A DNA stretch of 64,000 bases from Candidatus Moraniibacteriota bacterium (GTDB lineage Bacteria; Patescibacteriota; Minisyncoccia; Moranbacterales; DUUL01). The stretch is taken from assembly GCA_041583775.1 (NCBI GenBank), contig JBFHFF010000001.1:94676-158675 (forward strand). The letters are read 5' to 3'. The notes below the pieces were generated by a model. That model was not told where the DNA came from, searched no databases, and worked only from the letters and a program-made list of their open reading frames with translations. This document shows, in pieces, positions 12,301 to 63,545 of this stretch (the stretch's first letter is position 1; every line of letters starts with the position of its first letter). The translations under genes were made by a program, and so were the position numbers.

Positions 12301-14343
12301 TTCTTTTTCGATATGATTTTCGTCTTTCTCTCCCACTTCAATTCCTGGTTCAGTCTCTATTTCATCTTCTGGTTTGTCTTTTGAAGTTTCTGTCTGTTCA
12401 GCATCCTTGACAATTTTCTCAAAATTTATTGATTCATTTAAGGTACCCGTTTCTTCTCCACGCCTTTCAAGTTCTTCTTTGTATTTTTTTATACTAACTT
12501 CAACTTCTTGAAACTGATTTTTTTTCTCTTTATTAGTTTTATTACTATCTAATAATAAATTGTTCCTGATTTCATTCAACTGCAAGAGTTCCTCCTGCAA
12601 AACAGAAGTTTCAACTTCTTCAAGATTTTCCTCAGATTTATTATTTTTTACCTCCTCTGTGTTCTCTTCTTGCTTGTATTTTTCTTCTTGACCACCCATA
12701 TTCTCCTCATCTTTTCTCCCAAAATCGTCTGTTCTGTCCATCCATTCTTGAAAATGAGTTCCTTGCTTCTTCAGTCTTTTTCCTCTTTCCTGATTATCAA
12801 TTATTTTTTCACCTTCTGTTTTATCCATCCATTCCCGAAAGTGAGTTCCTTGGGCCCTCAATGCCTTCTCCGTTGTTGTTTCTCCTGGACCTTCTTTTAT
12901 TTTCACCTCTTTTTTTAATTCGTTTTTTATCTCCGAACCTATAGCTGACTCTGTGCTAGGAGCTTCCTCGTTTATTCCCAATTTTTCCTTTGGCCAGTTA
13001 TTTTGAACTTTTTTTTCATTTCCAGAATCAAAAACTCCATCAACATTCGACTCTTTTCGATAACCTCCATTTAAAATCATCTGTCTCAATTCTTTAACTG
13101 AAACATACCTACCCTCTTTTTCTCCGGCAATTAAAATTCTAGCTTGATGTTGTTTACTTTGTTGTGAAAATTTATCTTTTTCAATTACAAAAGGCTTCAA
13201 TCCTCCCTGATTGCTTTTAAAAACAAATTCCTTACTTTTTCCAAACTCAGCAACAAAATCTTCTGCCCTCATTCCACCAGCTTCAACTTCGGGAATGACT
13301 TCTATTTCTGGATATTCTTCATTAATTAACTCTTCTAATTTATCTGGAGACATAATTTTTTCCCCACCAATATCCGTCCCTTCAACTTGAATTTCCCATC
13401 TATTCTGAGCTTTCTCATATAGATACTTCGTAATTTTAAGTTTTTTTATCCCATCCTTGCTTTTATGAACAGACCCAACCACACCAAAAATATTCATCAT
13501 ATCCTTAAGACTCAAAACCTCTCCGTTCTTTTTTTCTAGTGCACTTACCTCCATTGAGTCAATTTCTTTAAAAGATAATTCTTCTTTACTACCATCACCA
13601 CTACCTTCTTCCACTCTCTTAAAGTTCTTAAACAACTCTAAAAATTCTTTACCGTCCATTATTTCGTCATCAGAACCACTCTTCCAATCAGCGTCTAAAT
13701 TGATTACATTTACACCCTCCTCAACCATTGTTCCAGAGGGCAAAAAAGCAATATGAACTCTACCATTTTCATAACTAACAATTTTCATATGCTTCTTACC
13801 ATCCTCGCTAACATAAATCTCATTAGGATCTATTTTATGTAACTGAAAAAAATCCTCTCCAAAATTCTCTTCTTGGATTTCTACTTTTTTATTTTCAATA
13901 CCTTTCTTGTTATCTTTTTTTTGAACTTCAACCTTTTCTGTCTCCAACTCAACCTCTTCAATCTTTTTAATAAAACTTTCATCAACTAGACCCTCTACCT
14001 CACCCTTAACAATTCTCTCCAAACTAGAAAGTCTTTTACTTCTCAAAAATTCACAAATAACCGCATCTGTAGCTTGGGCATTTTCCAAATTCAAATCACC
14101 CGCCATTGCAGTTTCTTTTAACTTGGCAGCAAGCTCTGCAAGATCAATAATTAATTTTCCCTGAAGCTCCTTTCTTTCACCTGGAGAATGCTTCATCAGA
14201 TAATCGTTGATAACATCCTTAGAAAACTTCCTCTCAAGTACAGACACAACGCCATTTTTAATCTCCTTTCTTTGTTCTGTTTGCTCAAAATTTTCTACCT
14301 GCGAAGAACTTTCTCTTGATTCTTCTGTTGTTGTTTCTGACAT
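9316..14343 (-). CDS. Giant (1675 aa) charged protein with central glycine-rich TM segments and internal sequence repeats; unknown function
   Basis: Single uninterrupted ORF with no signal peptide. Central hydrophobic Gly-rich segments (LVYGTLLAGVVGTVGSFVAGGAISTALGVGV; AMAAAGITGLVVGGGARAF). Three repeats of the xFxxKxxxEAHxKFIE[DE]HxG motif and a duplicated GTHF[RQ]EWMD[KR]T unit. Confidence 0.7.
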   Translation of the reverse strand: MSETTTEESRESSSQVENFEQTEQRKEIKNGVVSVLERKFSKDVINDYLMKHSPGERKELQGKLIIDLAELAAKLKETAMAGDLNLENAQATDAVICEFLRSKRLSSLERIVKGEVEGLVDESFIKKIEEVELETEKVEVQKKDNKKGIENKKVEIQEENFGEDFFQLHKIDPNEIYVSEDGKKHMKIVSYENGRVHIAFLPSGTMVEEGVNVINLDADWKSGSDDEIMDGKEFLELFKNFKRVEEGSGDGSKEELSFKEIDSMEVSALEKKNGEVLSLKDMMNIFGVVGSVHKSKDGIKKLKITKYLYEKAQNRWEIQVEGTDIGGEKIMSPDKLEELINEEYPEIEVIPEVEAGGMRAEDFVAEFGKSKEFVFKSNQGGLKPFVIEKDKFSQQSKQHQARILIAGEKEGRYVSVKELRQMILNGGYRKESNVDGVFDSGNEKKVQNNWPKEKLGINEEAPSTESAIGSEIKNELKKEVKIKEGPGETTTEKALRAQGTHFREWMDKTEGEKIIDNQERGKRLKKQGTHFQEWMDRTDDFGRKDEENMGGQEEKYKQEENTEEVKNNKSEENLEEVETSVLQEELLQLNEIRNNLLLDSNKTNKEKKNQFQEVEVSIKKYKEELERRGEETGTLNESINFEKIVKDAEQTETSKDKPEDEIETEPGIEVGEKDENHIEKEKHLKMNEAFRDWKNAQIDYEKKGNRLGIVERSLARMKIFLGNDAEAMKELYEAKKRIKETESAFKQAHSDFIQTRVESRKIALDHGMVNSEDKNELMRKYIFMEKVVDSEVVTDSGEKMVEKISPMQDLINKMLEINNARKEILNEREKGIIENLSAGYKKLSRKEKLVYGTLLAGVVGTVGSFVAGGAISTALGVGVSRMGMKVVRSLPGGALGAAAFRDVKNRTESTRDERKVKIEKKTIDNYFSKGGQLDMVSMVQKKMNIERNDNLKAMAAAGITGLVVGGGARAFLDWSDIPNFTSEIPNDSGNHTTTTRNVAEAASVSSPESSTERPDAIESLANIKNESFEDAINKLRLSGVKEPVLEEFERKFGPEAHAKFIEDHNGADDEILENFWENRVIDAKNKISEFGSFDVNESSDSQIINAKSGGSYPEGNNSKERAPENRFVETNNKIETAGFEDTEAFKKFQAEHSAAAHIKFVEGYDGTKIEANNAWIEHVRNDRDEYFKEASLEQIDEQFEAGGLKKTDAYKEFKLKYSEEAHNKFIEEHGGSSKETEGLWIKRIKAGGREYILRAKTETDSLPGAQIEHEKFFGNKLNEQTDDGGGVDSLSQGQKSSQLENQKEVLADAENSPKILTKEELSSRLVELKIKEGDVTWRAMSKMTLKQLDDFPKTEAEAVAAWKNNSLSLSPEVRQVLGTVDVREAGRMGRVAGIVYDEIDKTAIKKPGRIVLEDALKENYKPKIIKPVFLQENSDSLEGGVIAKEEGIDRLAPIGENGKIEARMDHWPKEKTPTVNFDVDDERFIEEGAPVSKKEEVGGDNVHREAKIKEVPEENKSEKPEEEVGEKPKKAAETNRESLGEVGVESEVEKTNPQVPEQLGDDIDESLMKVSEEEITTTFKDKKWSDFAKQIKVVVDDNEILKADSVEEKLFYLDHSRAMLLANEIRKETENIPGMEDCSVSERIIAYIKGGKTINKKLLKELSEFNEYIEKFDKK

Positions 14344-16238: not shown

Positions 16239-16640
16239 ATGACAACAATAGACCCTACACAATTTAAAATTTGTATCGTTGAAGATGAGGAAAGTATCAG
16301 AGAATTATATCGCGCAAAATTAGAAGGGGAACATTATCAGGTTTTTACAGCTAAAGATGGTTTGGAGGGGCTGAAGTTATTAAAGGAAAATCCACCTAAC
16401 ATTGCCTTAGTGGACTTAATGATGCCGAATATGACTGGCTATGAGTTGATGGAAAAAATGAAGAATGATCCTGATTTAAAAAACATTCCCATTATTATTC
16501 TCACAAACTTTGACGACACTGAATCCATAAATAAAACAAGCCATTTTAATGCTGACTTTTATTTAGTAAAAGCTCAATACTCTCCATCTGATGTAGCACA
16601 TATCATAAAAGAAGTTCTTGAAGCTCATCATGAATTTTAG
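16239..16640 (+). CDS. Single-domain response regulator (CheY-like receiver)
   Basis: ICIVEDEE acidic pocket, phospho-acceptor Asp in ALVDLMMP, conserved T (IIILTN) and K region. There is no output domain and no histidine kinase in the window. Confidence 0.85.
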   Translation: MTTIDPTQFKICIVEDEESIRELYRAKLEGEHYQVFTAKDGLEGLKLLKENPPNIALVDLMMPNMTGYELMEKMKNDPDLKNIPIIILTNFDDTESINKTSHFNADFYLVKAQYSPSDVAHIIKEVLEAHHEF

Positions 16641-44248: not shown

Positions 44249-45202
44249 CTATTGCAAAATTTCCTCTACTTTCACATTTACAAGTCCTTTCCCTAGTGAA
44301 GCTATTTTTTCAAAAGCCACCGCTTCCAAGTCAATTCTTCTTCCAGTTGATAGTGCTGGCCCAAAATCCTTCACTTCTACAATTACTTGTTTTCCGTTTT
44401 CATTATTAGTCACACGAAGCCAAGTTCCTCTCGGAAAAATTCTAGAGGCACAGGTCAATTTCCCAGTATAACGATACCAACTTGCAACACCAGTTTTTAC
44501 CTTCCCTACACTGATTTTACTTCCAATTGTAACAATTTTTGCAATTGGCTTCTTTATCGTTTCTGAAGAAATAACTTCTTTAGAAATTTCCTTTCCATTT
44601 TTATAGGTAATCTTATACTCAATTATTTTCTCCCCTTTTTCGCCTTCTTGCTCAATCTCCTGTTTTCTCCATTGTAATTTTGGATCATCTTTTTCAATTA
44701 CCTCAAAATCAATCTCCTTTTTAACAGCAACATTTTCCACATTAATTCGTGTCACCACAATCTTATCTCCTCCATTAATAATCCCTTTTCTAGTTGGCTC
44801 AACTTTATCTAAATGACCAAGCTCAACGCCAGCATCGGCAAGTGCTTGCTCAACCGTCTTTCTAAATGTATTATGCTCTATTACTTTTCCGTCAACATCA
44901 ATCTCAAACCTTTTGTTTCGCCAAATCTCTATCGTCATTCCTGGTAAAAGTTTTTCTTGTTTTTCAGGATAAACCAAATCCTCTTCACCTAGATTGATTT
45001 GATGTTTTTCAATAAACTCTCCTACACTTTTAGCGTCGGAATTTATTTGATAAACCAAACTCTCATCTTGTAAGATTATTGCATTTTTATCCTCAAAAAC
45101 CAATTGTCTCTTTTCACTGAATAAAGCCTCCGATCCTTTCCAAATCAGCAACCCCGCTAGAACCAAAACAACAACTATTATTGATCTTTTGTTTTTCATC
45201 AA
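44249..45202 (-). CDS. RlpA-like double-psi beta-barrel (3D/DPBB) protein with DUF348/G5-like N-terminal region, signal anchor
   Basis: C-terminal VASWYRYTGKLTCASRIFPRGTWLRVTNNENGKQVIVEVKDFGP...RRIDLE matches the RlpA/3D-domain consensus (ASWYG...TA.GE...N..NG.sv.V.i.DrGP...R.iDLS). Confidence 0.7.
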   Translation of the reverse strand: MMKNKRSIIVVVLVLAGLLIWKGSEALFSEKRQLVFEDKNAIILQDESLVYQINSDAKSVGEFIEKHQINLGEEDLVYPEKQEKLLPGMTIEIWRNKRFEIDVDGKVIEHNTFRKTVEQALADAGVELGHLDKVEPTRKGIINGGDKIVVTRINVENVAVKKEIDFEVIEKDDPKLQWRKQEIEQEGEKGEKIIEYKITYKNGKEISKEVISSETIKKPIAKIVTIGSKISVGKVKTGVASWYRYTGKLTCASRIFPRGTWLRVTNNENGKQVIVEVKDFGPALSTGRRIDLEAVAFEKIASLGKGLVNVKVEEILQ

Positions 45203-45324
45203 TAAGAGTATATCATATCTAAAAACTAAAAAACAATGGTTTTGAGGTTATTTTCAGAACATTTTTGAACATCTTTTTTGACAATAAAAAGCTTTTTATT
45301 GGAGCACTTTTATTACGAAAATGC

Positions 45325-45353
45325 TTGACAAACTGATTAAAATATGCTATATT
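45325..45353 (+). promoter_or_regulatory. Sigma70-type promoter (TTGACA-17-TATATT, extended TGc) for GGDEF gene 1
   Basis: ttgaca 45325-45330, 17-nt spacer ending in tgc, tatatt 45348-45353. Almost identical to the promoter at 46235-46263. Confidence 0.55.
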
Positions 45354-45432
45354 AGAAAGTATATCAGTACCTATCATTGTCCCTATGTAAAGTCAATAAC
45401 CCATCTTATACAATAGACGAAAGGAGTTACAC

Positions 45433-46119
45433 ATGACAAATCCCAAAGATAAAGATTTAGAAAAAAAGATTTTAAAACAAGAATTAGCCGAGACAAACAA
45501 AAGACTATTGGCAACACTTGATTATGTTGTAACACTGGAGGAGAGGTGCGCCAGCTGGAAAAAAATAGCAAGAAAATTCCAGGAGATGGCGTTGATAGAC
45601 GGATTAACAGAGGTGCCAAATCGAAGATTCTTCGATATAACATTCGATGAAATCTTCCAGAAAAGGCTTGCTGGGACAGAAAAAATTGCAAGAAAAAGAA
45701 GCAGTGACAAAAATCAAGGACCACTAACATTACTGTTAGTAGATATAGATTTCTTCAAGCCGTATAATGATGTCTCTGGTCATCCAGCTGGAGACAAGGC
45801 TCTTCGTCAGGTAGCCTCAGCAATGAAGAGTTCTTTACGAAGCAATGACTTCTTAGCTAGATACGGCGGAGAAGAATTTGTCGTAATTCTTCCCAATACA
45901 AGCCATACTGAAGCTCAACTTGTGGCAGAGAGAGCAAGGAAAGCTGTCGAAAATCTTGGAATCCCACACCCGGGCTCTGGGACAAGCGAAGTTGTAACTG
46001 TCAGCATTGGGTTGGCCGCTCTCTCGGGAGAACTCTCCCCAGAAGAATTTCTGGAGGCGGCCGACAAAGCCTTATACAATGCCAAGAGGAAAGGGAGGAA
46101 TTGCGTTTATTACGATTAA
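45433..46119 (+). CDS. Diguanylate cyclase (GGDEF domain, intact GGEEF site) with N-terminal coiled coil
   Basis: SD AAGGAG lies 7 nt upstream. LLLVDIDFFKPYNDVSGHPAGDKALR and RYGGEEFVVILP (active-site GGEEF). Strong terminator at 46128-46170. Confidence 0.85.
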   Translation: MTNPKDKDLEKKILKQELAETNKRLLATLDYVVTLEERCASWKKIARKFQEMALIDGLTEVPNRRFFDITFDEIFQKRLAGTEKIARKRSSDKNQGPLTLLLVDIDFFKPYNDVSGHPAGDKALRQVASAMKSSLRSNDFLARYGGEEFVVILPNTSHTEAQLVAERARKAVENLGIPHPGSGTSEVVTVSIGLAALSGELSPEEFLEAADKALYNAKRKGRNCVYYD

Positions 46120-46127
46120 ACCAGGAA

Positions 46128-46170
46128 GGCACTGGACTCAAAAATGAGTCCAGTGCCTCTTTATTTTTAT
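46128..46170 (+). terminator. Intrinsic terminator (12-bp stem ggcactggactc/gagtccagtgcc + T-run)
   Basis: Perfect 12-bp stem with a 6-nt loop, followed by tctttattttta. Confidence 0.7.
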
Positions 46171-46234
46171 TTATCTTTTTTTATAAAATAAAAATAAATT
46201 AAATTCATCATTATAAACCAGAGCCCTTAAATCA

Positions 46235-46263
46235 TTGACAAACACAATAAAATATGCCATATT
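46235..46263 (+). promoter_or_regulatory. Sigma70-type promoter (TTGACA-17-CATATT, extended TGc) for GGDEF gene 2; paralogous to 45325-45353
   Basis: ttgacaaacacaataaaatatgccatatt versus ttgacaaactgattaaaatatgctatatt upstream of gene 1. Confidence 0.5.
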
Positions 46264-46338
46264 CTCAAACATACTAGTACTTTATTACAAGTAAATGATT
46301 TTATAAATCACATATAAATACGCACTCGGAGGTAGCTT

Positions 46339-46995
46339 ATGCAAGAATTAGAGCAATTGAAAGAAATTTTTTACCAAAAAAAAGTTTCTGACGAAACAGT
46401 ATCATATGTAAAAGCGCTTGAAAAAGCATTGCAGATGGCTGTTGCTAGAACAAAAAGATTGGAAGAAGACAAAAAAAAATTACTAACAAGTTTTAGTTCT
46501 TTCAGAGTAACAACCCCTTTTGATTTAATATCTGGGGCTCACACTGCTACTTTCTTTGAAGATGAAATAAAGAAAAGAGTATTGGAAAGCAAGGAGAGTA
46601 AAAGCCCCTTATCTCTAATCATCATTGAAGTGAATCGCTTCAGGGACTACTGGAATACTTCCAAATTTTCAGAGGGAGATTCACTGTTATACGAAGTTGC
46701 TTCTAATCTACAAGGCTTCTTAGGGCCCACAAGCTCACTCTCAAAAACAGATAATGGGCAGTTCTCTGTTTTGATTCCCAAAACAAAAAAGGAAGCTATA
46801 AACTTAGCATTAGGGCTTCAAAAAAGCCTTACATCTCTCAAGATTCCACACTGCGGCAACACAGAGACAATTTTTACTTTCGGTGTTGCCACATTGGGAA
46901 CACAAGAATCTGTAAAAGCTTTTTTGATCCGGAGCAAAAGGTATTTGCGATTGTCTAAAAAAGAAAACTGTTATATGTATTGTGGTGGCGATTAA
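46339..46995 (+). CDS. Degenerate GGDEF-domain protein (GGDEF replaced by DNGQF), probably non-catalytic
   Basis: SD GGAGG lies 6 nt upstream. SLIIIEVNRFRDYWNTSKFSEGDSLLYEVA aligns with the GGDEF N-terminal half. The active-site position reads DNGQFSVLIP. N-terminal coiled coil as in its neighbour. Two terminators follow (47003-47044, 47061-47092). Confidence 0.6.
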   Translation: MQELEQLKEIFYQKKVSDETVSYVKALEKALQMAVARTKRLEEDKKKLLTSFSSFRVTTPFDLISGAHTATFFEDEIKKRVLESKESKSPLSLIIIEVNRFRDYWNTSKFSEGDSLLYEVASNLQGFLGPTSSLSKTDNGQFSVLIPKTKKEAINLALGLQKSLTSLKIPHCGNTETIFTFGVATLGTQESVKAFLIRSKRYLRLSKKENCYMYCGGD

Positions 46996-47002
46996 TGCCA
47001 CT

Positions 47003-47092
47003 AGACCACCGAACTCAAAACTAGAATTCGGTGGTCTTTTTTGTTTCTACAAATTCAAAAGGACCAGTGAAATTCTACTCTGGTCCTTTTTT
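47003..47092. terminator. Two consecutive intrinsic terminator hairpins (agaccaccgaa/ttcggtggtct + T7; ggaccag/ctggtcc + T6)
   Basis: The first serves plus-strand GGDEF gene 2. The second is flanked by A/T runs on both sides and can also terminate the minus-strand gene ending at 47116. Confidence 0.6.
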
Positions 47093-47115
47093 AAGATTTA
47101 AGAGATGGATATCTC

Positions 47116-47886
47116 TTATTTTTTTTCCTCCATTACTAATTGAGGTTGAGGCTTTCTATTTCTGGTAAATTTAGACACCAAGGACAAAACAGCCAATCCT
47201 GCAACAATAAAAAGTATATAATTTGCGATATTTGGAATGTTGACTTTTTGTTTCAGTAAGAAACAATATATCACCAAAACAGATAAAAGAAATGTTTTAA
47301 TCTTCCCAAAACTATTTGCGGCAGTTGCGAAGCTCAATCCAATTTTACGAACAAAATTAACTGTACTTCGTAGATACTGACCTAAAAAATCTGTTATTAC
47401 ACAAACCAAAACAAGTTGCCAAAGCAAATCACCCTCAAAACCAAAATAAACCAAAGGGATTAACAGCTTAATCTTGTCAAAGAGAGGATCCAGTTTTTTG
47501 CCAAAATCCGTAACTAGTCCAGTTCCTCGAGCCACAATTCCATCTAGTAAATCAGCAAAAATGCCGAAAATAAAGAGGGAAATCCCTATATTTGGATAAT
47601 TATAAAAATACAAAACTATCCCAATAGTAGCAGTTATCCCACCCCAAATAGTGATTGCATTGGGATGTAAAAAAAACTTAAAACGCAAGATTATTTTCTT
47701 AGCTTCCTTCTTATCTTTTTCTATGGCTTTTTTAACCAAAAAAACTAACAACAAAGAAAAACTAACAACAAAAACCACTAATGCAATTTTGTTCATCACT
47801 ACCCTCCTCAAGGCTTTTTTGTTGAAATCAGTTTTTAATAAAAAGAAATAATAAAGTACCCACAATAAGGCTATACCAAAAAACAA
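47116..47886 (-). CDS. CDP-alcohol phosphatidyltransferase family protein (PgsA-like)
   Basis: Motif DLLDGIVARGTGLVTDFGKKLDPLFDK matches D-G-x2-A-R-x8-G-x3-D-x3-D. Multi-TM. The true start may be the internal MNKIALVV. Confidence 0.75.
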   Translation of the reverse strand: MFFGIALLWVLYYFFLLKTDFNKKALRRVVMNKIALVVFVVSFSLLLVFLVKKAIEKDKKEAKKIILRFKFFLHPNAITIWGGITATIGIVLYFYNYPNIGISLFIFGIFADLLDGIVARGTGLVTDFGKKLDPLFDKIKLLIPLVYFGFEGDLLWQLVLVCVITDFLGQYLRSTVNFVRKIGLSFATAANSFGKIKTFLLSVLVIYCFLLKQKVNIPNIANYILFIVAGLAVLSLVSKFTRNRKPQPQLVMEEKK

Positions 47887-55264: not shown

Positions 55265-56097
55265 TTTTTATTGAGTTTTTTATTTTCCTGCGTAATTATT
55301 TCCGCTACACGACCATCCAACATCTTAAAAACCTTACTTGCATAATGATATTGATCAGGATTGTGTGTAACCATTAGTATTGTTATTTCAAATTTTTTAT
55401 TCAACTGAGAAATAAGATCCATTAATTCAACTCCTGATTTTTGATCAAGATTTCCAGTCGGCTCATCTGCAATAATAAACCAGGGATTGAGGAGAAGTGA
55501 TCTCGCTAAAGCAACTCTCTGTTGTTGACCTCCAGAAAGATCAAAGGGTCTATGTTTTGACCATTCACTCATACCAACAAGCTCCAGCATTTGTGCTGCC
55601 TTTTCAAGCCCTTCATGAAATTTTAAACCACCTATAATTGAAGGAACTGCAACATTCTCCAAAACACTCAATGACTTAAGCCAAAAAGCTTGCTGTGGAA
55701 TAAATCCCACACTTTTATTTCGAAAATCAGCTCTCCAATTTTTCGTATGTTTCCAAATATCGGTACCTTTAATATAAACACTTCCTTGAGATGGTGCCTC
55801 CAAACCATAAACAATGTGTAATAAAGTTGATTTTCCGCACCCAGAAGGACCAACTAGCATCGCAAAATCACCCTGCTTGATTTTAAGGTCTACCCCATTA
55901 AGAACAGAAATTTCATTCTCTCCAATAACAAACTCTTTTTTGATATCACTAACAACAACAACACCTTCTTTTTCAGCGTACAATTCAACTGTTGCTTTAT
56001 CGTTATTACGATGACTTAAGCTTTTCAATATGTCGGCTTCTTCCCTTAAGTCACTTTCTTTTTTTTCTTTAATTATTGCCATAGTTTTGATATCCAA
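55261..56097 (-). CDS. ABC transporter ATP-binding protein (MacB/LolD-type)
   Basis: Walker A VGPSGCGKSTLL, signature LSGGQQQRVALARSL, Walker B FIIADEPTGNLD and H-loop. The start region overlaps the 3' end of the upstream giant gene. Confidence 0.9.
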   Translation of the reverse strand: MDIKTMAIIKEKKESDLREEADILKSLSHRNNDKATVELYAEKEGVVVVSDIKKEFVIGENEISVLNGVDLKIKQGDFAMLVGPSGCGKSTLLHIVYGLEAPSQGSVYIKGTDIWKHTKNWRADFRNKSVGFIPQQAFWLKSLSVLENVAVPSIIGGLKFHEGLEKAAQMLELVGMSEWSKHRPFDLSGGQQQRVALARSLLLNPWFIIADEPTGNLDQKSGVELMDLISQLNKKFEITILMVTHNPDQYHYASKVFKMLDGRVAEIITQENKKLNKK

Positions 56098-59000
56098 CTA
56101 AATTTATCAGCAAAAGTTCCTACAACTATTTCCGTTGCATTTTCTTTTGAATCTTCAACAATGACCGTCACAGCTTTTGTTGAAGTTTCATTTCCTGATT
56201 CATCGAATGTTTTAACGATATAACTATAAACCTGTCCTGGATCAACAGGAATAGTTACTAGATGATATGTATTTAAAGGGTCTTCTGCCGAACTCTGTTC
56301 AAAATTAGCCAACACTATTCCAGGGCTATAAAAAACTTTTGCAGTTGTAATTTCATCTGTTTCGACTTTGATATACAAATTTGCACGAGCATCCTTTCCT
56401 CTTCCAATCACCCTACCAACTGCACGATTAGAAAGAATCCCTGGAGGCCTACTATCAGCCTTGGTAATGATTTTTGTATCTAAAGTTGTTGCAGAAACTC
56501 CATCTTCAGCTGTTCCTCCAACATTGATTTCATATTCAACTGATGGCGCTAACCCCTCTAGTTCAATTGAATGTTCAGTTACATATTCGTTATCCAAAAA
56601 ATTATGAAGGGAAGCCTCACTTGTCATTTTAAAATTAATTAAAGTATTTGTCGGTAAAGTTGTGTTATATTTTACTATCACAGTCGGGATATCAACATTC
56701 TCCTTATTTTCAACAATAAGATCAGAAGAAATTGGTTGCTCTAAAGTTCTGAAATTATATCTATCCGAACTAAACTCATTCAAATCATCATCTATGGCAT
56801 CAATTTGAAAACTATAATCTGTTGTACTATCAAGCCCTGTTAATTTTATCATATGGCTGCTTCCCGAGGAAGTTTCCTCTATTAGCTCAGATAAGCTACC
56901 GCCCTTACCATAATGCAAAGTACATTTCGCACTGGTATTAGTTGTCCAAAAAATTGTTGCTACATCAAGACCTACATCAGACGCCTCGACTTCTGAAATT
57001 GTTGGAGGTGGCAATGTTTCAAAAGTTAAAATGTCACTCATTCCTATATTTCCATCTGGGTCTATGTATTTTGCTCTGTAATAATATTTTGAGCCAGCAT
57101 CCAAACCAGTGAGTTCAACAATATGATCTGTTAGAGAATCAACTTGTCCATTCGTTTTTCCAAGACTCATTGATTTTCCATATTCCACAAAAGAGCTGGC
57201 AAAACGATTAGTTCCCCATTTTATTGTAGCTTCATAAGCCTGAACTGTGTGAGTTGGTTCTGTTACTAATGTAGGAGGAGTTGTGTATCTTCCTGTAGGA
57301 ATTATATTCACTGTAGTTGATGCAATGGAAATATTATTAGTACTATCCTTTGATTTTACATAATAATAATAAGTTCTACTTTCAAGTTCCGTGTCAACAT
57401 AAGCACTTCCAGATGTTGATGCCACTTCTTTAAATGTTTCGTCGTCATCACTTCTGTAGATAATATAACCATCAAAATTGTCTTCATTGATTGAGACGGG
57501 AGGGGACCATTTAAGTGCTATTGAATATTCTTGATTTTCTCTATCAGAAGTATCAAAAATTTGAATATTAACTGGCGCTCCAGGGGCTGATGTGTCAGCT
57601 TCGAAATCTACATAAGCATATAAGTCATAATCAATATTTTCAGCCTCATCCATTGCGCATACATAAAAACGATTCAATCCTTTCTGTGTTGCAAAAGGTC
57701 CAGGACCAGCAGCTCTAACGGCTGTATTTATTATATTATATGCATTTGGTAAAGCGTTAACTGAATATACATATTTTATTTTATTAGCATCTCCCATATA
57801 AGACTCTGGTTGATCCCATTGAAAAGCAAAAGAATTTATTGTTGATGTTTCCGGAGTTACAGTCAAATTCCTCGGCGGAGAAGGAGCACTTGAACTGAAA
57901 TAATATTCCTGATTTATAGCTGCCGAAACATTTCCAGCCGCATCAACAACTCGTAAATGAAACCAATTTTTTCCAGATTGATAAGCAGCAACGGTATGTT
58001 CGTCATTTGGAAGAGTAAGTGTTGTTGCCATCGGATCATCGATGTCATACCAGACATCTTTCTCGTCTCCATCAGTTTGATATTGAAACTTAGCCACGCC
58101 AGAATGTGCATCGGTTACATCTGACTCCCAAGTAAAAGTATAATTGTCACTAGCTGTATAACCAGCTGGGTTAACTAATATATTTGTTGGATTTGTTGGA
58201 GAGGTATTATCGAAACGATAAGTGAAGGCCGCATATGTTGAAGCGGGTACCATTTCAGCATCATCAATCGCCTTAATCCTTAAATAATAATCCTCGCCTG
58301 AACTTAAATTTTCAGCCGTAAATGTATTTTCACTTTGTAAATTTCCTTCCAAATATGGATCTGCCGAACTATCAGTTCCAAAATAAACATAATACCCAAC
58401 AACACCAGAACCACCTGAGCCATCACTTGCACCATTAACCTCTTCGGCAGCCGGCCAAACAAAGTACGGTGCAATATTTCCATACCAAGCATTGCTTGTT
58501 AATATTACCCCCGAAGAACTATTGTTATAACCAACAACTGAAGTAGGATTTGTTGGAGCAATAGAATCTTGATAATAATTAATTTCGATATCTTCTAATA
58601 AAGGAGATTTTATTCTATCAGAAGATGTAAATTCTATCCTAATTTGAATATATCTATTTTCACCAGAAAGAATATTAAAACGATGCTCATTTGGACTAGG
58701 AATTTGTTCGTTTGTAACTCGCTCCCAACTTGACCATTCAACTTCATCACTTGATGTTCTGGTATAAATAACAGCACTTGTATTGTTTGGAAGTATGTAT
58801 CTCGCAGTTAAATTAGCCCACTTATATACATCAATGAGATCAATTGATTCAGAAGTATAGTTTCCTGTTTTTTTAAAACCAGTATCATTTTCGGCTGAGC
58901 CAACCACATAACTATATAAACCATTTCTATATGAATCAGATTCACCTCTTGCCGTCAACCAAATTCTATCATTTGAGAAAACGGCATCTCCTTCTCGATA

Positions 59001-62000
59001 AACTCTTGATGGGACATCTTCAAGCTCTTCCCAAGAATCAGCAGTAATGTTATATCTAAAATTTTCTCTAGTATTATTTCCCCTCATTGCATGCAAGTAT
59101 CCATCTCTTGTATCAACCAATGAACCACCATAGTTTATAGCAGCTGGAGCACTAGTTCTTGTCTCCCAAGAGCCAGAATTCACATCATATCTCCACATAG
59201 TAGAATAATTACCACCTCTGGTCCAATAAATATATGGCACATCACCAACTTCTTTATAAAGAATTTTTCCCCCATAATTATTTGTGAGTCCAGAAGTTGT
59301 CGGAAGTGCCGAAGACCAGCGGCTGCCAGCCGTAGCCTGCGTATCATATCTCCACCAATTAGAGCTTGCTCCTCTAGTAAGGTATATATATCTAGCGCCA
59401 TCGTATGTCATAGAGGACCCAGAGCTTGTCTGTAGAGGAATCGGATCTGTAGTAATTGTCTCCCAGGTATTCGTAGCAACTTCATATCTCATAAAATAGT
59501 TGTTGCTTCCGTCAATAGCTCTTGATCTTGTTCCGGTACCAGTTGAAAGATATATCGCGTTCTCATCTTCGTTGTATGCCATTGCTGTACCAGACCAAAG
59601 ACCAACAGGGGTATCTGCTAATTTCAGAAACTCACCAGAATTAGTATCATATTTTCCGAAATCACTACTGTAATAACCTCTTGTTATATATAAACTACCC
59701 GCACCATCTTCAACAAGTTCGGAGCCATAATAATAGTCAAAATATGAATTAGTACTATCCAAAATGGATGGTCCAAAAAAACCTCTTTGTGGAATTTCCC
59801 AAGAATTTTCTTCGATATTAAAACGATAAAACAAAGTTGAACCATTAGCTCTAAGAACATAAACATATCCATCAACAACTTTCATAGTAGTTCCGTAGGC
59901 AATACTATTTGGAATTTTAGGAAGTTGCATCCAAGAATCAGTTGTTACATCATACTTCATAAAGTTATCTCTCCAATTTCCACTTAACATGAAAATTGAA
60001 TTTGTTTCATCATCATAAGAAACGCAACCACCGTAATAAACACCGATTGGAGCTTTAGCTAAAGGAACCCAAGAATTTCCATCTTCTCCAGTTTCAATAT
60101 CATCGTCGATAATGTATTTTGAAAAATAAGGATAGTAATTACCCTGTAAGGCATATATGTAATTCTCTCCGTCGAAAACTGCATCAGCTCCTGCATAAAC
60201 CCTTTGTCCATCAGACTCATTTGGATTTCCAAATTCCGCATTAGATAAAGTTGTCCAACGATTGTCTTGAGTGTCATAACGATAAAAAACATCATCATTC
60301 CCTGGAAACGCATAAATATACCTTCCTCCGTCCGAAGAAAGTGAGCTACCATAAGTAAAATTCTTTGGTGCACTTGAAACTGATTCCCAATTATCATTTA
60401 CGATATCATACCTCCAAAAAGTTGAGGTATTTGTGCCACGAGATGCAAATAAATAACCCTCTGGTCCTTCTGCTAAAGTTCCTCCATAATAAACGGCCTC
60501 TGGTGCATCCTTAAGCGAAGACCAAGTATCAGTTTCTATGTCATAAACATAAAAACTTTTTTGATTATAACCTCTCAATGAATATAATTTACCATCGACA
60601 TGAACTAACTCAGCTCCTCGCTGAATTGTTCCTGGGGCATTTGACAAAAGTGTCTGTTGCCAAAAGCCATCGACTGCTTCCAGTTGTAATTCATCAGGCT
60701 CTGCTGAAGTTGAAATGTTCTCCACTTCACCCTCTTCAAAATCTGCCTGACTTGTTTGTATCTCAGTTTGAAAAGGAGAAACTCCATCATAGCTATAAAC
60801 AAAAGCCTCCCAAACTTCATCAGTTATATTCCCGTCGTTATCTTTCGTCTTCAAAAGTAAATAATAATCTCCTGTTGTCATCGCAATATTAGCAGAATAA
60901 CTAGTTGCTGTTTGAAAAACACCCTCAGTTTCTGGATCAGCAGAACTATCAGGTCCAAAATATACAAAATACCCTTCTATTTGAGATCCCGCATCTGATG
61001 CCTCTGTCCAAGAGAAAAAAGGGTGTGTATGTTTATACTCAGTGCTACTGACAAGAGATTCTCCTCCTATTCTTGCTGATGATGCTGAAATTGTTGTGGG
61101 ATTGATAGGGTCAACATCCTCACTATTATATGAAATTGTGATGTCATCAATAGTTGGAGTTTTTTCTCCATCAGAACTTACAAGGGTTACTTTCACTTGT
61201 AAATATCTTTTTTTAGGAGATTGGATATCAGTTCCTGAAATAGCCGTCCAAACAGACCAAGTAATGGCATCATCAGAACTTCTAGTTTGATATACAACAG
61301 AAGTATTAATTGGTATATCCTCGCTTGCTGTTAACGATATCCAGGAGTCAACATATCCAAGGTCCAATACTTCACTTGTGAAAGTTCCATTTAGAGTAAA
61401 GTTTGTTGTTCCTGCGGTATAACTCCAAAAATCAGTAATATCAGTTCCTGGTGAAGCATAAAAAGAATTGTTTCCAGTATAAGCAATTGATGCTCCTGCC
61501 CAAGTTCCTCGACCATAAGAATATTTTTGATTAAATGGCAATTCCCTCCAAGAGTCAGTTGCTATTGTATATTCCCAGGTACTGTTTTGATAATTTCCTG
61601 CAAGCGCTAAAATCTTTCCATTTTCATCAAATGTTAAATCTGTACCATAATATTGAGCAAAAGGTGTTTTTTCCAATTTACTCCAAGAATTAGTAGCTGT
61701 ATCATATTTCAAAAACGCAGTCTCTCCATCACCCACAGTGGTATAAAGATTAGTACCATCAGAAATTAAACGAGCACCAACATACGGATAATAATAAAAA
61801 TCATCAGTAGCAACATCAGCCATTTGAGTCCACGAATCGCCAGCAATATCATACCGATAAAAACTTCTCTGGGCATTACCCCTCAAAACATAAATAAAAC
61901 CATCAGAGGCATTATAAACAGCATTTGCACCTTGCCCCAAAGTTCCTGGCGCTGCCGACATTGAACTCCAAGAATCACTAGCTATGTCGTAACGGTAAAA

Positions 62001-63545
62001 ATTACCAGTGGTATTATCGCCTCTTGGAATATAAATATAACCATTATGATAAGTACCTTTTGTATCATAATTCATATTAAGCGGCAAAGAGCTCATCACG
62101 CTCCAACTATTAGCTGAGACATCGTATCGATAAAAAGCGTTATTATTGTCACCTTTAATACCATACAAATAATTACCAGCACCAACAATTCCATTCCAAA
62201 TCAAGCCACCACCCGTATTGAAACTACTTGGGGCATCTGCTGGCCCAACCCAATCACCACTAGATCCCTCTGCTGGGTCAAACTTCCAAAAAGTGTATGA
62301 TCCATTCCCTCTAATTACAAAAAATTTATCGTTATCAGTATCATATGCTATAGAAGAATAATTCGTGGTTAAGGGAGTATCTTCTAATGTGTCCCAAGAA
62401 TCAGTATCAATACAATATCTATAAAATGTATTTGTATTACCAGAGCGCAAAAAATAAACATATCCATCTCGATAAACACCTTTCTTTTCACCATTAAAAG
62501 AAAGGGGCGAATCTGCCAAAGCATTCCATGAATTATTATCAATGTCATATTCCCAAAGAGTTTTTTGATTATAACCCCGAAGAACATACATTTTCCTGTT
62601 ATCCCCATAGACTAATCCACCTCCTGTGTAAATATTGGCAGGCGCTGGGGCAAGATTATACCAACTATTTTCAGAAATATCAAACTTCCAAAAATCTGTA
62701 GAATTTTGTCCGCGTGTTATAAAAAAATCTGCTCCATCAAATTCGATTCCAGCACCCTGATAAACAGAGTCTAAAAGGTTTGGAAGTTTTTCCCATTCAT
62801 CAGTTTCAATATCATAAGAATAAAACTCCTTTGAATAACCCCCAAAAATAAAATATAACTTATCAACTCCATTATATGCAACATCGGCACCATAAAAAGC
62901 TGGCTGTGGCATATCGATAGTTTTAACCCACTCATTAAGATCAATGTTGTAGACATATAAATCTTTGTCGCTATAACCTCTCACTAAATATAAATAATTT
63001 CCTACGACAACAGAAGTAGATCCATATGCAATAGTGTCATATGCCGGAGCCCAAGAACGAGCAGTCCAAGTACCACTTGATGATAATTGAATTGAGTCAG
63101 TTTTGCTTGTAGTTGAAATATTAAAAATTTCTCCACTCTCCCATTCCATTTGAGATGAAATCGTTTTTGATTGTGGTGCTGCAGAAATAAGCGGACTAAC
63201 CAAAAAAATAACAGCTATAAGCAAGGAGGCTAATGTTGAATTATAGATAACAACTTTAATTGTGCGAAAAATAAATACAAAAATACCCCCAATAATATCT
63301 TTAAATTTTGAAGCAACCTTCAAAACGCTAAATTGCCAACCCAAGACACTTCTATTTCTTTTCTTATTCTCAGTTTGTTCCAAAAATTCATCTAGCTTAT
63401 TGATTGAATATTGCTTGTTAATTTGGTTTTTTTTAACTCTTTTTTTCCCAAGCAAAAAACCAAGAATATTCACCTTCTTGTTTCTTTTAAAAATACCTCC
63501 ACTTATTATTTTATTTTTTTTATTATTTATATTTTTTTGTTTCAT
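56073..63545 (-). CDS. Giant (2490 aa) cell-surface protein: N-terminal TM anchor, two blocks of Kelch/beta-propeller repeats, FN3-like modules, C-terminal FN3/PAP-N-like repeat pair
   Basis: Single ORF. Dozens of repeats of the form Y.YDI..D.W..L / Y.GG (for example YSYDIETDEWEKL and YRYDIASDSWSSM). PTNPT-containing FN3-like linkers. C-terminal paired domains of about 90 aa (…KYYYRAKYIDPDGNIG… / …DYSFQIDAIDDDLNEF…). Confidence 0.8.
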   Translation of the reverse strand: MKQKNINNKKNKIISGGIFKRNKKVNILGFLLGKKRVKKNQINKQYSINKLDEFLEQTENKKRNRSVLGWQFSVLKVASKFKDIIGGIFVFIFRTIKVVIYNSTLASLLIAVIFLVSPLISAAPQSKTISSQMEWESGEIFNISTTSKTDSIQLSSSGTWTARSWAPAYDTIAYGSTSVVVGNYLYLVRGYSDKDLYVYNIDLNEWVKTIDMPQPAFYGADVAYNGVDKLYFIFGGYSKEFYSYDIETDEWEKLPNLLDSVYQGAGIEFDGADFFITRGQNSTDFWKFDISENSWYNLAPAPANIYTGGGLVYGDNRKMYVLRGYNQKTLWEYDIDNNSWNALADSPLSFNGEKKGVYRDGYVYFLRSGNTNTFYRYCIDTDSWDTLEDTPLTTNYSSIAYDTDNDKFFVIRGNGSYTFWKFDPAEGSSGDWVGPADAPSSFNTGGGLIWNGIVGAGNYLYGIKGDNNNAFYRYDVSANSWSVMSSLPLNMNYDTKGTYHNGYIYIPRGDNTTGNFYRYDIASDSWSSMSAAPGTLGQGANAVYNASDGFIYVLRGNAQRSFYRYDIAGDSWTQMADVATDDFYYYPYVGARLISDGTNLYTTVGDGETAFLKYDTATNSWSKLEKTPFAQYYGTDLTFDENGKILALAGNYQNSTWEYTIATDSWRELPFNQKYSYGRGTWAGASIAYTGNNSFYASPGTDITDFWSYTAGTTNFTLNGTFTSEVLDLGYVDSWISLTASEDIPINTSVVYQTRSSDDAITWSVWTAISGTDIQSPKKRYLQVKVTLVSSDGEKTPTIDDITISYNSEDVDPINPTTISASSARIGGESLVSSTEYKHTHPFFSWTEASDAGSQIEGYFVYFGPDSSADPETEGVFQTATSYSANIAMTTGDYYLLLKTKDNDGNITDEVWEAFVYSYDGVSPFQTEIQTSQADFEEGEVENISTSAEPDELQLEAVDGFWQQTLLSNAPGTIQRGAELVHVDGKLYSLRGYNQKSFYVYDIETDTWSSLKDAPEAVYYGGTLAEGPEGYLFASRGTNTSTFWRYDIVNDNWESVSSAPKNFTYGSSLSSDGGRYIYAFPGNDDVFYRYDTQDNRWTTLSNAEFGNPNESDGQRVYAGADAVFDGENYIYALQGNYYPYFSKYIIDDDIETGEDGNSWVPLAKAPIGVYYGGCVSYDDETNSIFMLSGNWRDNFMKYDVTTDSWMQLPKIPNSIAYGTTMKVVDGYVYVLRANGSTLFYRFNIEENSWEIPQRGFFGPSILDSTNSYFDYYYGSELVEDGAGSLYITRGYYSSDFGKYDTNSGEFLKLADTPVGLWSGTAMAYNEDENAIYLSTGTGTRSRAIDGSNNYFMRYEVATNTWETITTDPIPLQTSSGSSMTYDGARYIYLTRGASSNWWRYDTQATAGSRWSSALPTTSGLTNNYGGKILYKEVGDVPYIYWTRGGNYSTMWRYDVNSGSWETRTSAPAAINYGGSLVDTRDGYLHAMRGNNTRENFRYNITADSWEELEDVPSRVYREGDAVFSNDRIWLTARGESDSYRNGLYSYVVGSAENDTGFKKTGNYTSESIDLIDVYKWANLTARYILPNNTSAVIYTRTSSDEVEWSSWERVTNEQIPSPNEHRFNILSGENRYIQIRIEFTSSDRIKSPLLEDIEINYYQDSIAPTNPTSVVGYNNSSSGVILTSNAWYGNIAPYFVWPAAEEVNGASDGSGGSGVVGYYVYFGTDSSADPYLEGNLQSENTFTAENLSSGEDYYLRIKAIDDAEMVPASTYAAFTYRFDNTSPTNPTNILVNPAGYTASDNYTFTWESDVTDAHSGVAKFQYQTDGDEKDVWYDIDDPMATTLTLPNDEHTVAAYQSGKNWFHLRVVDAAGNVSAAINQEYYFSSSAPSPPRNLTVTPETSTINSFAFQWDQPESYMGDANKIKYVYSVNALPNAYNIINTAVRAAGPGPFATQKGLNRFYVCAMDEAENIDYDLYAYVDFEADTSAPGAPVNIQIFDTSDRENQEYSIALKWSPPVSINEDNFDGYIIYRSDDDETFKEVASTSGSAYVDTELESRTYYYYVKSKDSTNNISIASTTVNIIPTGRYTTPPTLVTEPTHTVQAYEATIKWGTNRFASSFVEYGKSMSLGKTNGQVDSLTDHIVELTGLDAGSKYYYRAKYIDPDGNIGMSDILTFETLPPPTISEVEASDVGLDVATIFWTTNTSAKCTLHYGKGGSLSELIEETSSGSSHMIKLTGLDSTTDYSFQIDAIDDDLNEFSSDRYNFRTLEQPISSDLIVENKENVDIPTVIVKYNTTLPTNTLINFKMTSEASLHNFLDNEYVTEHSIELEGLAPSVEYEINVGGTAEDGVSATTLDTKIITKADSRPPGILSNRAVGRVIGRGKDARANLYIKVETDEITTAKVFYSPGIVLANFEQSSAEDPLNTYHLVTIPVDPGQVYSYIVKTFDESGNETSTKAVTVIVEDSKENATEIVVGTFADKFSWISKLWQ

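Follow-up and report, generated by a model that had tools for sequence, protein, structure and literature searches.

A pair of adjacent genes encoding proteins with a helical stalk and a GGDEF domain was analysed in a 64,000-nucleotide stretch of DNA from a Candidatus Moraniibacteriota bacterium (GenBank assembly GCA_041583775.1, contig JBFHFF010000001.1), here called the window. Both genes lie on the plus strand, embedded in a long run of minus-strand genes (Table 1). The first, G1, encodes a diguanylate cyclase of the active type, predicted to synthesise cyclic di-GMP (c-di-GMP), and the second, G2, encodes a catalytically degenerate paralog. That the pair goes back to a duplication and that one copy has become a pseudo-enzyme is highly probable. 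With less assurance, we regard as probable the whole reading developed below, in which a tandem duplication left G1 as a constitutive cyclase and G2 as a dead stalk partner that damps it.

G1 matches the Pfam GGDEF family PF00990 with 156.6 bits (E 6e-46, cut-off 23.8) and passes the NCBI curated cyclase model TIGR00254 (157.3 bits, cut-off 37.4). Its active-site loop is R143-Y-G-G-E-E-F149, and five residues before GGEEF stands an inhibitory site (I-site), R136-S-N-D139, which aligns to the RSSD of WspR. The Mg2+ ligands D104 and D106 (within DID 104-106), the guanine-binding residues N112 and D121 and the C-terminal residues K218 and R222 are all kept. When the conserved set of the family is defined as the 43 alignment columns with at least 90% conservation across 46 database homologs, G1 retains 41 of them. 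Judged by its residues, G1 appears fully equipped for the binding of GTP and Mg2+, for catalysis and for product inhibition at the I-site. The AlphaFold model has a pLDDT (predicted local distance difference test) score of 93.5 and shows a single uninterrupted helix, residues 4-53, preceding the GGDEF domain; nothing lies N-terminal to this helix and the protein has no sensor domain. In sequence comparison with the PDB, it matches WspR and the GCN4-WspR fusion best (E 3.5e-35). Between the first GGDEF helix and strand 1 is a basic insert of 13 residues, RLAGTEKIARKRS (residues ~78-92, positions 45664-45702), which is modelled with low confidence, is lineage-specific and is absent from G2 and from all orthologs.

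G2 scores above the gathering score of PF00990 (51.6 bits, E 1e-13) and below the cut-off of TIGR00254 (30.9 bits against 37.4), and it is 29% identical to G1 over 137 residues (BLASTP, E 1e-15). Where G1 has RYGGEEF the loop of G2 reads K136-T-D-N-G-Q-F142, and at the I-site position G129-P-T-S132 has taken the place of RxxD. Among the other replacements, DID has become EVN, the asparagine has become W105 and GH has become KF; the C-terminal D/Y/GR residues are lost as well, and the DxLT motif is degenerate (DLIS). Only 12 of the 43 family-conserved residues are kept. The AlphaFold model of G2 (pLDDT 91.4) has a helix at residues 18-58 followed by the beta-alpha pattern of a GGDEF domain. A Foldseek comparison of this model with the PDB places coiled-coil GGDEF cyclases at the top (DgcB 6ttr, WspR 3bre, GCN4-WspR 3i5c), and the 50 top-ranked matches listed are all GGDEF-domain proteins. 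In NCBIfam, weak similarities to GdpS, LapD and CsrD were seen. G2 is a GGDEF fold without catalytic, substrate-binding or I-site residues, and with this sequence it should be able neither to make c-di-GMP nor to bind it at an I-site. The first-pass annotation, made from the DNA letters and their translations, had described an active and a degenerate GGDEF paralog, each with an N-terminal coiled coil. The Pfam matches, the motifs and the heptad pattern of both predicted helices agree with that description, and the concern that the second protein might not be a GGDEF fold at all is answered by Pfam, AlphaFold and Foldseek alike.

The position of the pair was compared across relatives by means of the neighbouring yabE-like gene, whose product has named relatives at 40-50% identity in the Patescibacteria group, the Parcubacteria group and Moranbacteria. 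A YabE profile retrieved 79 metagenome loci, and of these only close-clade members have a GGDEF gene within 4 kb. In six related Patescibacteria-type lineages there is one GGDEF gene in the same slot, on the opposite strand, and the gene order of the clade is pcrA, in some members a CDP-alcohol phosphatidyltransferase gene, the GGDEF gene on the opposite strand, yabE, rsmA and a gene for a fused double PilB-like ATPase. YabE of the window is 81% identical to that of locus L014, 74% to L100, 61% to L098, 58% to L015, L016 and L065 and 54% to L017, L018 and L019; all of these have one GGDEF gene in the slot, that of L100 being partial and cut by the contig end. In the more distant loci L020, L056 and L063, pcrA adjoins yabE with nothing between. 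Every single-copy ortholog encodes RYGGEE(F/L) with RxxD before it. Because the relatives carry a single active-type gene in the same slot, the pair appears to be a lineage-specific tandem duplication of a unit of ~910 bp, consisting of promoter, leader, gene and terminator. Across the loci compared, the cyclase gene is a constant feature of one narrow clade, and only the lineage of the window has a second copy. A phmmer search of 1.84 billion representative proteins found no close relative of G2, and a word-index homolog search with G2 recovered G2 alone. The best single-domain matches of G2 among the same representatives are clusters that hold the syntenic orthologs of L014 and L017, at ~31% identity.

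The stalks provide further evidence for the origin of the pair. From 'LEE' to the D of DxLT there are 18 residues in both G1 and G2 and 11 in L014, L100 and L017, and L098 has 14 extra residues. This insertion of one heptad (+7), shared by the two copies, argues that G1 and G2 are sister copies born in this lineage. Together with the single gene in six lineages, it strengthens the earlier suggestion of a duplicated enzyme and pseudo-enzyme. G1 occupies the ancestral position, directly behind the ancestral intergenic region. Positions 45200-45353 have 87.5% nucleotide identity to L014, and the leader of G1, with 73% identity to its L014 counterpart, is co-linear with it as far as the start codon. 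In the same comparison, flanking coding DNA is 77-85% identical, the third codon positions of the flanking genes 60-67% and other intergenic regions 70-78%. An intergenic identity of 87.5% compared with 60-67% at third positions means that the regulatory region is constrained. The whole yabE/GGDEF intergenic region of ~150 bp seems constrained, beyond the promoter hexamers.

G1 and G2 are preceded by 230 and 219 bp of non-coding DNA respectively, in line with the ~220 bp noted in the first-pass annotation. A duplicated promoter, TTGACAAAC-N5-AAAATATGCYATATT, is found at 45325-45353 and 46235-46263; with the spacing of N8 given earlier there are zero matches in the window. Even when up to 3 mismatches are allowed, the element occurs in these two copies only in the 64 kb, and 0.00 are expected by chance. 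The surrounding block is a 52-nt direct repeat with 75% identity, the copies being 910 bp apart, and a weaker 30-nt A+T-rich match between the copies lies further upstream. The claim of a conserved duplicated promoter stands in that there are two copies within a repeat, but much of the conserved sequence is the generic sigma-70 pattern TTGACA-17-TGnTATATT. Both promoters are near the sigma-70 consensus with an extended -10 element, the hexamers matching at 11/12 positions in copy 1 and 10/12 in copy 2. A scan of one genome per species in 185,579 species found the exact 29-mer once each in 9 unrelated genomes, in some cases before apparent tRNA and RNase P RNA genes (judged by eye). Because the 29-mer is found singly in unrelated genomes, the core belongs to no repeat family but is a strong promoter of a generic kind, and it does not by itself constitute a lineage signal. 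One of the 29-mer matches (L007:1575-1603, plus strand, in an Omnitrophota metagenome-assembled genome) precedes small open reading frames (ORFs) with PilZ-like N-termini (RxxxR-type start, by eye), which is probably a coincidence.

The lineage-specific signal lies in two leader blocks common to the orthologs. Besides the -35 and the extended -10 elements, seven aligned promoters and leaders share block A, AAA(C/G)(A/T)ATAyyAGTAC, which starts ~4 nt after the -10 element, and the seven leaders also share a mid-leader block, T(A/G)yAAATCA, and a ribosome-binding site of the AAAGGAG type. The promoter block is in the orthologous position in L014, L100, L016 and L017, and the 14-nt leader block A of G2 is identical to that of the L100 ortholog. 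Block A has no further occurrence within the window; it is a candidate for an operator or for an element of the initially transcribed region. Rfam gave nothing relevant up to E = 10 in 45000-47300, c-di-GMP riboswitches (GEMM-I/II) included in the search, and no match at gathering score in the whole window, and RNAalifold found no consensus RNA structure across the seven homologous leaders. A palindromic operator seen by eye over the -10 element, ATGyT-N9-ArCAT, was rejected; its arms are 5 bp, it is imperfect in most orthologs and it is probably due to chance. The predicted 5' untranslated regions, counted from 7-9 nt past the -10 element, come close to the ~70 nt of the first-pass annotation, and the individual strong terminators that it had listed are each present as a hairpin with a T-run after G1 and after G2.

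Compared with L014, the two copies are the most divergent genes of the locus. The nonsynonymous divergence (dN) between the window and L014 is 0.04 for PcrA, 0.05 for the PilB-like protein, 0.11 for YabE, 0.16 for RsmA, 0.31 for the CDP-alcohol transferase, 0.56 for G1 and 0.75 for G2. The normal rate of a GGDEF gene can be seen between L014 and L100, where the GGDEF proteins are 67% identical with a dN of 0.29 and the YabE proteins 75% identical with a dN of 0.155. Both copies thus appear to have diverged very fast after the duplication. At synonymous sites, G1 and L014 differ in a proportion of 0.79 (Nei-Gojobori pS, saturated), compared with 0.50-0.64 for the four housekeeping neighbours and 0.70 for the CDP-alcohol transferase. 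Where residues are conserved, codon identity is 9 points over expectation between G1 and L014, on only 90 sites; the four housekeeping neighbours are 8 to 20 points over expectation and the CDP-alcohol transferase gene 4 points.

Both stalk helices show a heptad pattern. When the stalks are anchored on DxLT, hydrophobic residues occupy positions -7/-3 (a and e) in G1, G2, L014, L016, L017 and L098, whereas the partial L100 sequence is without this a/e hydrophobic phase. Stalk length changes in units of seven residues, with +7 in G1 and G2, a separate -7 in G2 and +14 in L098, and indels of this unit keep the heptad phase relative to DxLT. According to work on DgcR (Teixeira et al., PMC8041772), the linker adopts the a/e register in its activated state, fusing GCN4 to WspR in the active register gives a highly active enzyme, and GGDEF linkers vary in length by multiples of seven. 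G1 would form dimers in which the 50-residue N-terminal helices pair as a parallel coiled coil, and because it has no sensor domain and has the 'activated' a/e register, it is most likely a constitutively dimeric and constitutively competent cyclase. How much c-di-GMP it makes would depend on transcription, driven by a strong promoter with a conserved leader, and on feedback inhibition at RSND.

G2 is most likely a non-catalytic partner of G1 that would act through the stalk, as its stalk shares the heptad phase of G1 and the derived length feature. A heterodimer of G1 and G2 would have a single active half-site and would be inactive, because the synthesis of c-di-GMP needs two GTP-loaded subunits. 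Co-expressed G2 would then lower or buffer c-di-GMP synthesis, as in a poison-subunit or paralog-interference model, which would also explain the fast divergence of both copies. Heterodimerisation specifically is a tentative and somewhat doubtful element. A more elaborate version, which we think rather unlikely, makes G2 a built-in antagonist, born of a recent tandem duplication, that titrates what is possibly the sole cyclase of a reduced genome, with the divergence as a resolution of interference and the leader block, conserved in both copies and all orthologs, as a regulator site that would couple c-di-GMP synthesis to the divergent yabE-rsmA-pilB operon, which encodes a type IV pilus ATPase.

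Several points weigh against the proposal of a damped cyclase. Interaction and co-expression of G1 and G2 are predictions, and the register argument is carried over by analogy from Rec-GGDEF enzymes. G1 and G2 differ strongly in stalk sequence, and the stalks may have diverged precisely to avoid pairing. A poison subunit that is co-expressed 1:1 brings no obvious benefit, and neither a c-di-GMP receptor nor a phosphodiesterase was found within the 64 kb. Furthermore, the identity of G1 to the orthologs is much the same throughout (41-50%) and not highest with L014, and its G+C content at third codon positions (GC3) is the highest of 36 genes in the window (38% compared with a mean of 26.7%, standard deviation 3.4). 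The last two features could mean that an allele was replaced and not that evolution was accelerated. GC3 was considered as a mark of a foreign G1 and is not decisive, because the GGDEF genes in most relatives (L098, L100, L017) are also richer in G+C than their flanks; G2 itself has the third highest GC3 of the window (32%).

If there was no recent duplication in place, G1 could be a divergent allele of the clade that came in by recombination in the conserved promoter and leader, G2 being the displaced native gene, or the two could go back to an old duplication, with one copy since lost in every relative sampled. The identity of G1 is 46% to L014, 50% to L017 and 48% to L016, its synonymous differences from L014 exceed those of the neighbours and its GC3 stands apart from that of the other genes in the window. 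The ortholog nearest to G2 is that of L014 (35%), G2 shares its leader block with L100, and the similarity upstream of the two copies is confined to the promoter core, all of which would fit such a history. However, an identity of 45-50% is the saturation floor for consensus-like GGDEF domains, with unrelated phyla scoring 48-51% against G1, and therefore the equal distance of G1 from the orthologs is expected. The elevated GC3 tends to recur in the relatives, all six sampled relatives have one gene, and neither the +7 insertion common to G1 and G2 and absent from L014, L100 and L017 nor the co-linear leader of G1 favours replacement or old paralogy. These histories are less likely than duplication in place, and we assign them a low probability.

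About as improbable is a role for G2 as a receptor or effector that senses c-di-GMP, the product of G1, or GTP, and signals to another target. Degenerate GGDEF domains are often receptors, as established for PelD, PopA and SgmT, and the intact fold of G2, its location beside a cyclase and the promoter type common to both genes suit that role. Yet the known mode of binding needs RxxD where G2 has GPTS, the arginine equivalent to that in AERAR of G1 is missing, and there is no extra output domain; sensing of GTP is unlikely since the counterparts of N112, D104/D106, K109 and GGEEF are all replaced. When G2 was described earlier as typical of non-catalytic GGDEF receptors or effectors, the non-catalytic part was right, whereas the RxxD mode of reception is not supported. 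It is still less probable that G2 is a decaying pseudogene without function. The loss of all catalytic residues, the highest dN and the lack of homologs elsewhere speak for it. G2 is nevertheless clearly maintained, because its frame of 218 codons is open despite this massive divergence, its fold is predicted with confidence, its stalk indels come in multiples of seven and preserve the heptad phase, and it still has its Shine-Dalgarno sequence, its -35 and -10 elements and a strong terminator. From base composition, the chance that a random ORF of 218 codons at 36% G+C lacks a stop is ~1e-7. The first-pass annotation had also raised the possibility that the block upstream of both genes belongs to a mobile or dispersed repeat and not to a promoter, which can hardly be sustained. 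Nothing speaks for it beyond the two copies themselves, these are the only ones in 64 kb, the block stands in the orthologous position in relatives, its geometry is that of a sigma-70 promoter with TG, and the 9 single matches in unrelated species resemble ordinary strong promoters; no repeat family was found.

Neither the cyclase nor the pair is a new kind of system, since stalk-GGDEF cyclases and pairs of active and degenerate GGDEF proteins are well known. WspR and the GCN4-WspR fusion (3bre, 3i5c) resemble G1 in that a parallel coiled coil runs straight into a GGDEF domain with RxxD, and 3i5c is among the best structural matches of the G2 model (template modelling scores 0.74/0.81, Foldseek). 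Unlike G1 and G2, WspR has a receiver domain that controls the stalk, and the GCN4 fusion is an engineered protein. DgcB of Caulobacter (6ttr), which Foldseek ranks first for G2 (E 3.5e-15), has the same two-part architecture, but its sequence identity to G2 is 17% and it is active and binds c-di-GMP. SiaD of Pseudomonas aeruginosa (7e6g), also a Foldseek match, is like G1 and G2 a small protein with a long stalk and a GGDEF domain only. In both, the NCBIfam SiaD profile covers stalk and domain with scores far below its equivalog cut-off, and the likeness is one of architecture and not of orthology. SiaD has as its partner the small, unrelated protein SiaC, and the neighbourhood of G1 and G2 contains no siaABC genes. 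Binding of the partner to the SiaD stalk promotes the active dimer (PMC8457831), a precedent for the control of stalk-GGDEF cyclases by proteins that bind the stalk.

For G2, the closest parallels are PelD, PopA, SgmT, GdpS and CsrD, in which a GGDEF fold with a destroyed GG(D/E)EF motif is retained under selection. PelD, PopA and SgmT are I-site receptors, and GdpS and CsrD are c-di-GMP-independent proteins. The receptor class keeps RxxD, which G2 does not, and G2 is also without the membrane or EAL modules present in GdpS, CsrD and LapD. By analogy, the pair can also be compared with the class III nucleotidyl cyclases, among which the alpha and beta subunits of soluble guanylyl cyclase and the C1 and C2 domains of adenylyl cyclase form heterodimers. 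Both cases would involve a duplicated dimeric cyclase with one decayed half-site and pairing through a coiled coil. The class III heterodimer, however, keeps one complete active site, whereas a dimer of G1 and G2 would be dead.

No other component of c-di-GMP signalling was found in the window. ORFs of at least 120 amino acids and called genes of the 64 kb gave no Pfam match to EAL, HD-GYP or PilZ, as had been stated before, and a PilZ motif scan of the window was negative. The response receiver domain regarded earlier as an orphan is a stand-alone domain of 133 amino acids (16239-16640). The PilB-like protein encoded at 39912-43220 matches Pfam MshEN at residues 111-196 (28.6 bits), and the first-pass annotation had proposed looking for a c-di-GMP site of this type in its N-terminal domains. 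The MshEN motif that binds c-di-GMP is reportedly RLGxx(L/V/I)(L/V/I)xxG(L/V/I)(L/V/I)xxxxLxxxLxxQ; a six-frame regular-expression search that allowed 3 substitutions did not find these 24 residues in the PilB-like protein.

Table 1. Positions of G1, G2, their regulatory elements and adjacent features in the window
Feature	Position	Strand	Description
yabE-like gene	44249..45202	-	DUF348-G5-DPBB; divergent neighbour, synteny anchor
Upstream half of yabE/G1 divergent intergenic region	45203..45324		Conservation compared with L014; probably holds the minus-strand promoter of yabE-rsmA-pilB
Block copy 1	45319..45370	+	-35 TTGACA 45325-45330, 17-nt spacer, TG 45345-45346, -10 TATATT 45348-45353, leader block A AAGTATATCAGTAC
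G1 leader	45354..45432	+	Predicted 5' untranslated region ~72 nt; mid-leader block TGTAAAGTCAA; Shine-Dalgarno AAAGGAG 45420-45426
G1	45433-46119	+	228 amino acids; predicted stalk-GGDEF diguanylate cyclase
G1 intrinsic terminator	46127..46168	+	14-bp G+C-rich hairpin 46127-46158 and T-run; folding free energy (dG) -27.9 kcal/mol, z -7.65
Block copy 2	46229..46280	+	-35 TTGACA 46235-46240, 17-nt spacer, TG, -10 CATATT 46258-46263, leader block A AAACATACTAGTAC
G2 leader	46264..46338	+	Predicted 5' untranslated region ~68 nt; mid-leader block TATAAATCA; Shine-Dalgarno GGAGG 46328-46332
G2	46339-46995	+	218 amino acids; catalytically degenerate stalk-GGDEF paralog
G2 intrinsic terminator	47003..47045	+	Hairpin 47003-47037 (inverted repeat) and T-run; dG -19.3 kcal/mol, z -5.26
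Further hairpin	47057..47090		A-runs/T-runs flank it on both strands; dG -16 kcal/mol on either strand
CDP-alcohol phosphatidyltransferase gene	47116..47886	-	Convergent neighbour

The hairpin at 47057..47090 is probably the terminator of the convergent CDP-alcohol phosphatidyltransferase gene and a reserve terminator for G2. Between pcrA and yabE, the insert specific to the clade consists of this transferase gene and the GGDEF gene; in L098 the GGDEF gene is present but the transferase gene is missing, and the more distant relatives lack both. PADLOC defence-system profiles gave no matches to G1, G2 or their neighbours.

The PilB-like protein (minus strand, 1102 amino acids) has two complete ATPase modules of the T2SSE/PilB/GspE type fused in one chain. 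Its N-terminus is charged and of low complexity over the first 100 residues, followed by one MshEN/T2SSE_N domain. It is 91% identical in L014, 83-91% clade-wide and 56-58% in the farther loci L021, L023 and L030. Elsewhere on the minus strand are two giant ORFs. One, at 9316-14343, encodes 1675 amino acids with no Pfam match at E <= 1e-5, and the other, at 56073-63545, encodes 2490 amino acids with Kelch/beta-propeller repeats, adjoins a MacB-type ABC transporter and is conserved in L014. An 828-amino-acid protein encoded at 5883-8369 (minus strand) resembles coupling proteins of the TrwB/VirD4 type and HerA (DUF87); small ORFs that match no family come next, then the 1675-amino-acid ORF, and the region may be a secretion or DNA-transfer module.

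Second-messenger signalling is essentially undescribed in Patescibacteria (also known as CPR, the Candidate Phyla Radiation), and a full-text literature search gave no paper that links them to c-di-GMP beyond passing mention. The locus described here adds a clade of aquatic, Patescibacteria-type organisms that keeps a minimal stalk-GGDEF cyclase without a sensor at a fixed position, beside an operon for a pilus ATPase. In one lineage of this clade the cyclase gene appears to have been duplicated and one copy turned into a pseudo-enzyme within a short evolutionary time, which gives a clean and datable GGDEF enzyme/pseudo-enzyme pair in a lineage where such signalling is undescribed. The pair may serve as a natural case for studying how a dimeric enzyme escapes or exploits interference by a dead paralog, and what a c-di-GMP network with one cyclase controls in an ultra-small cell.

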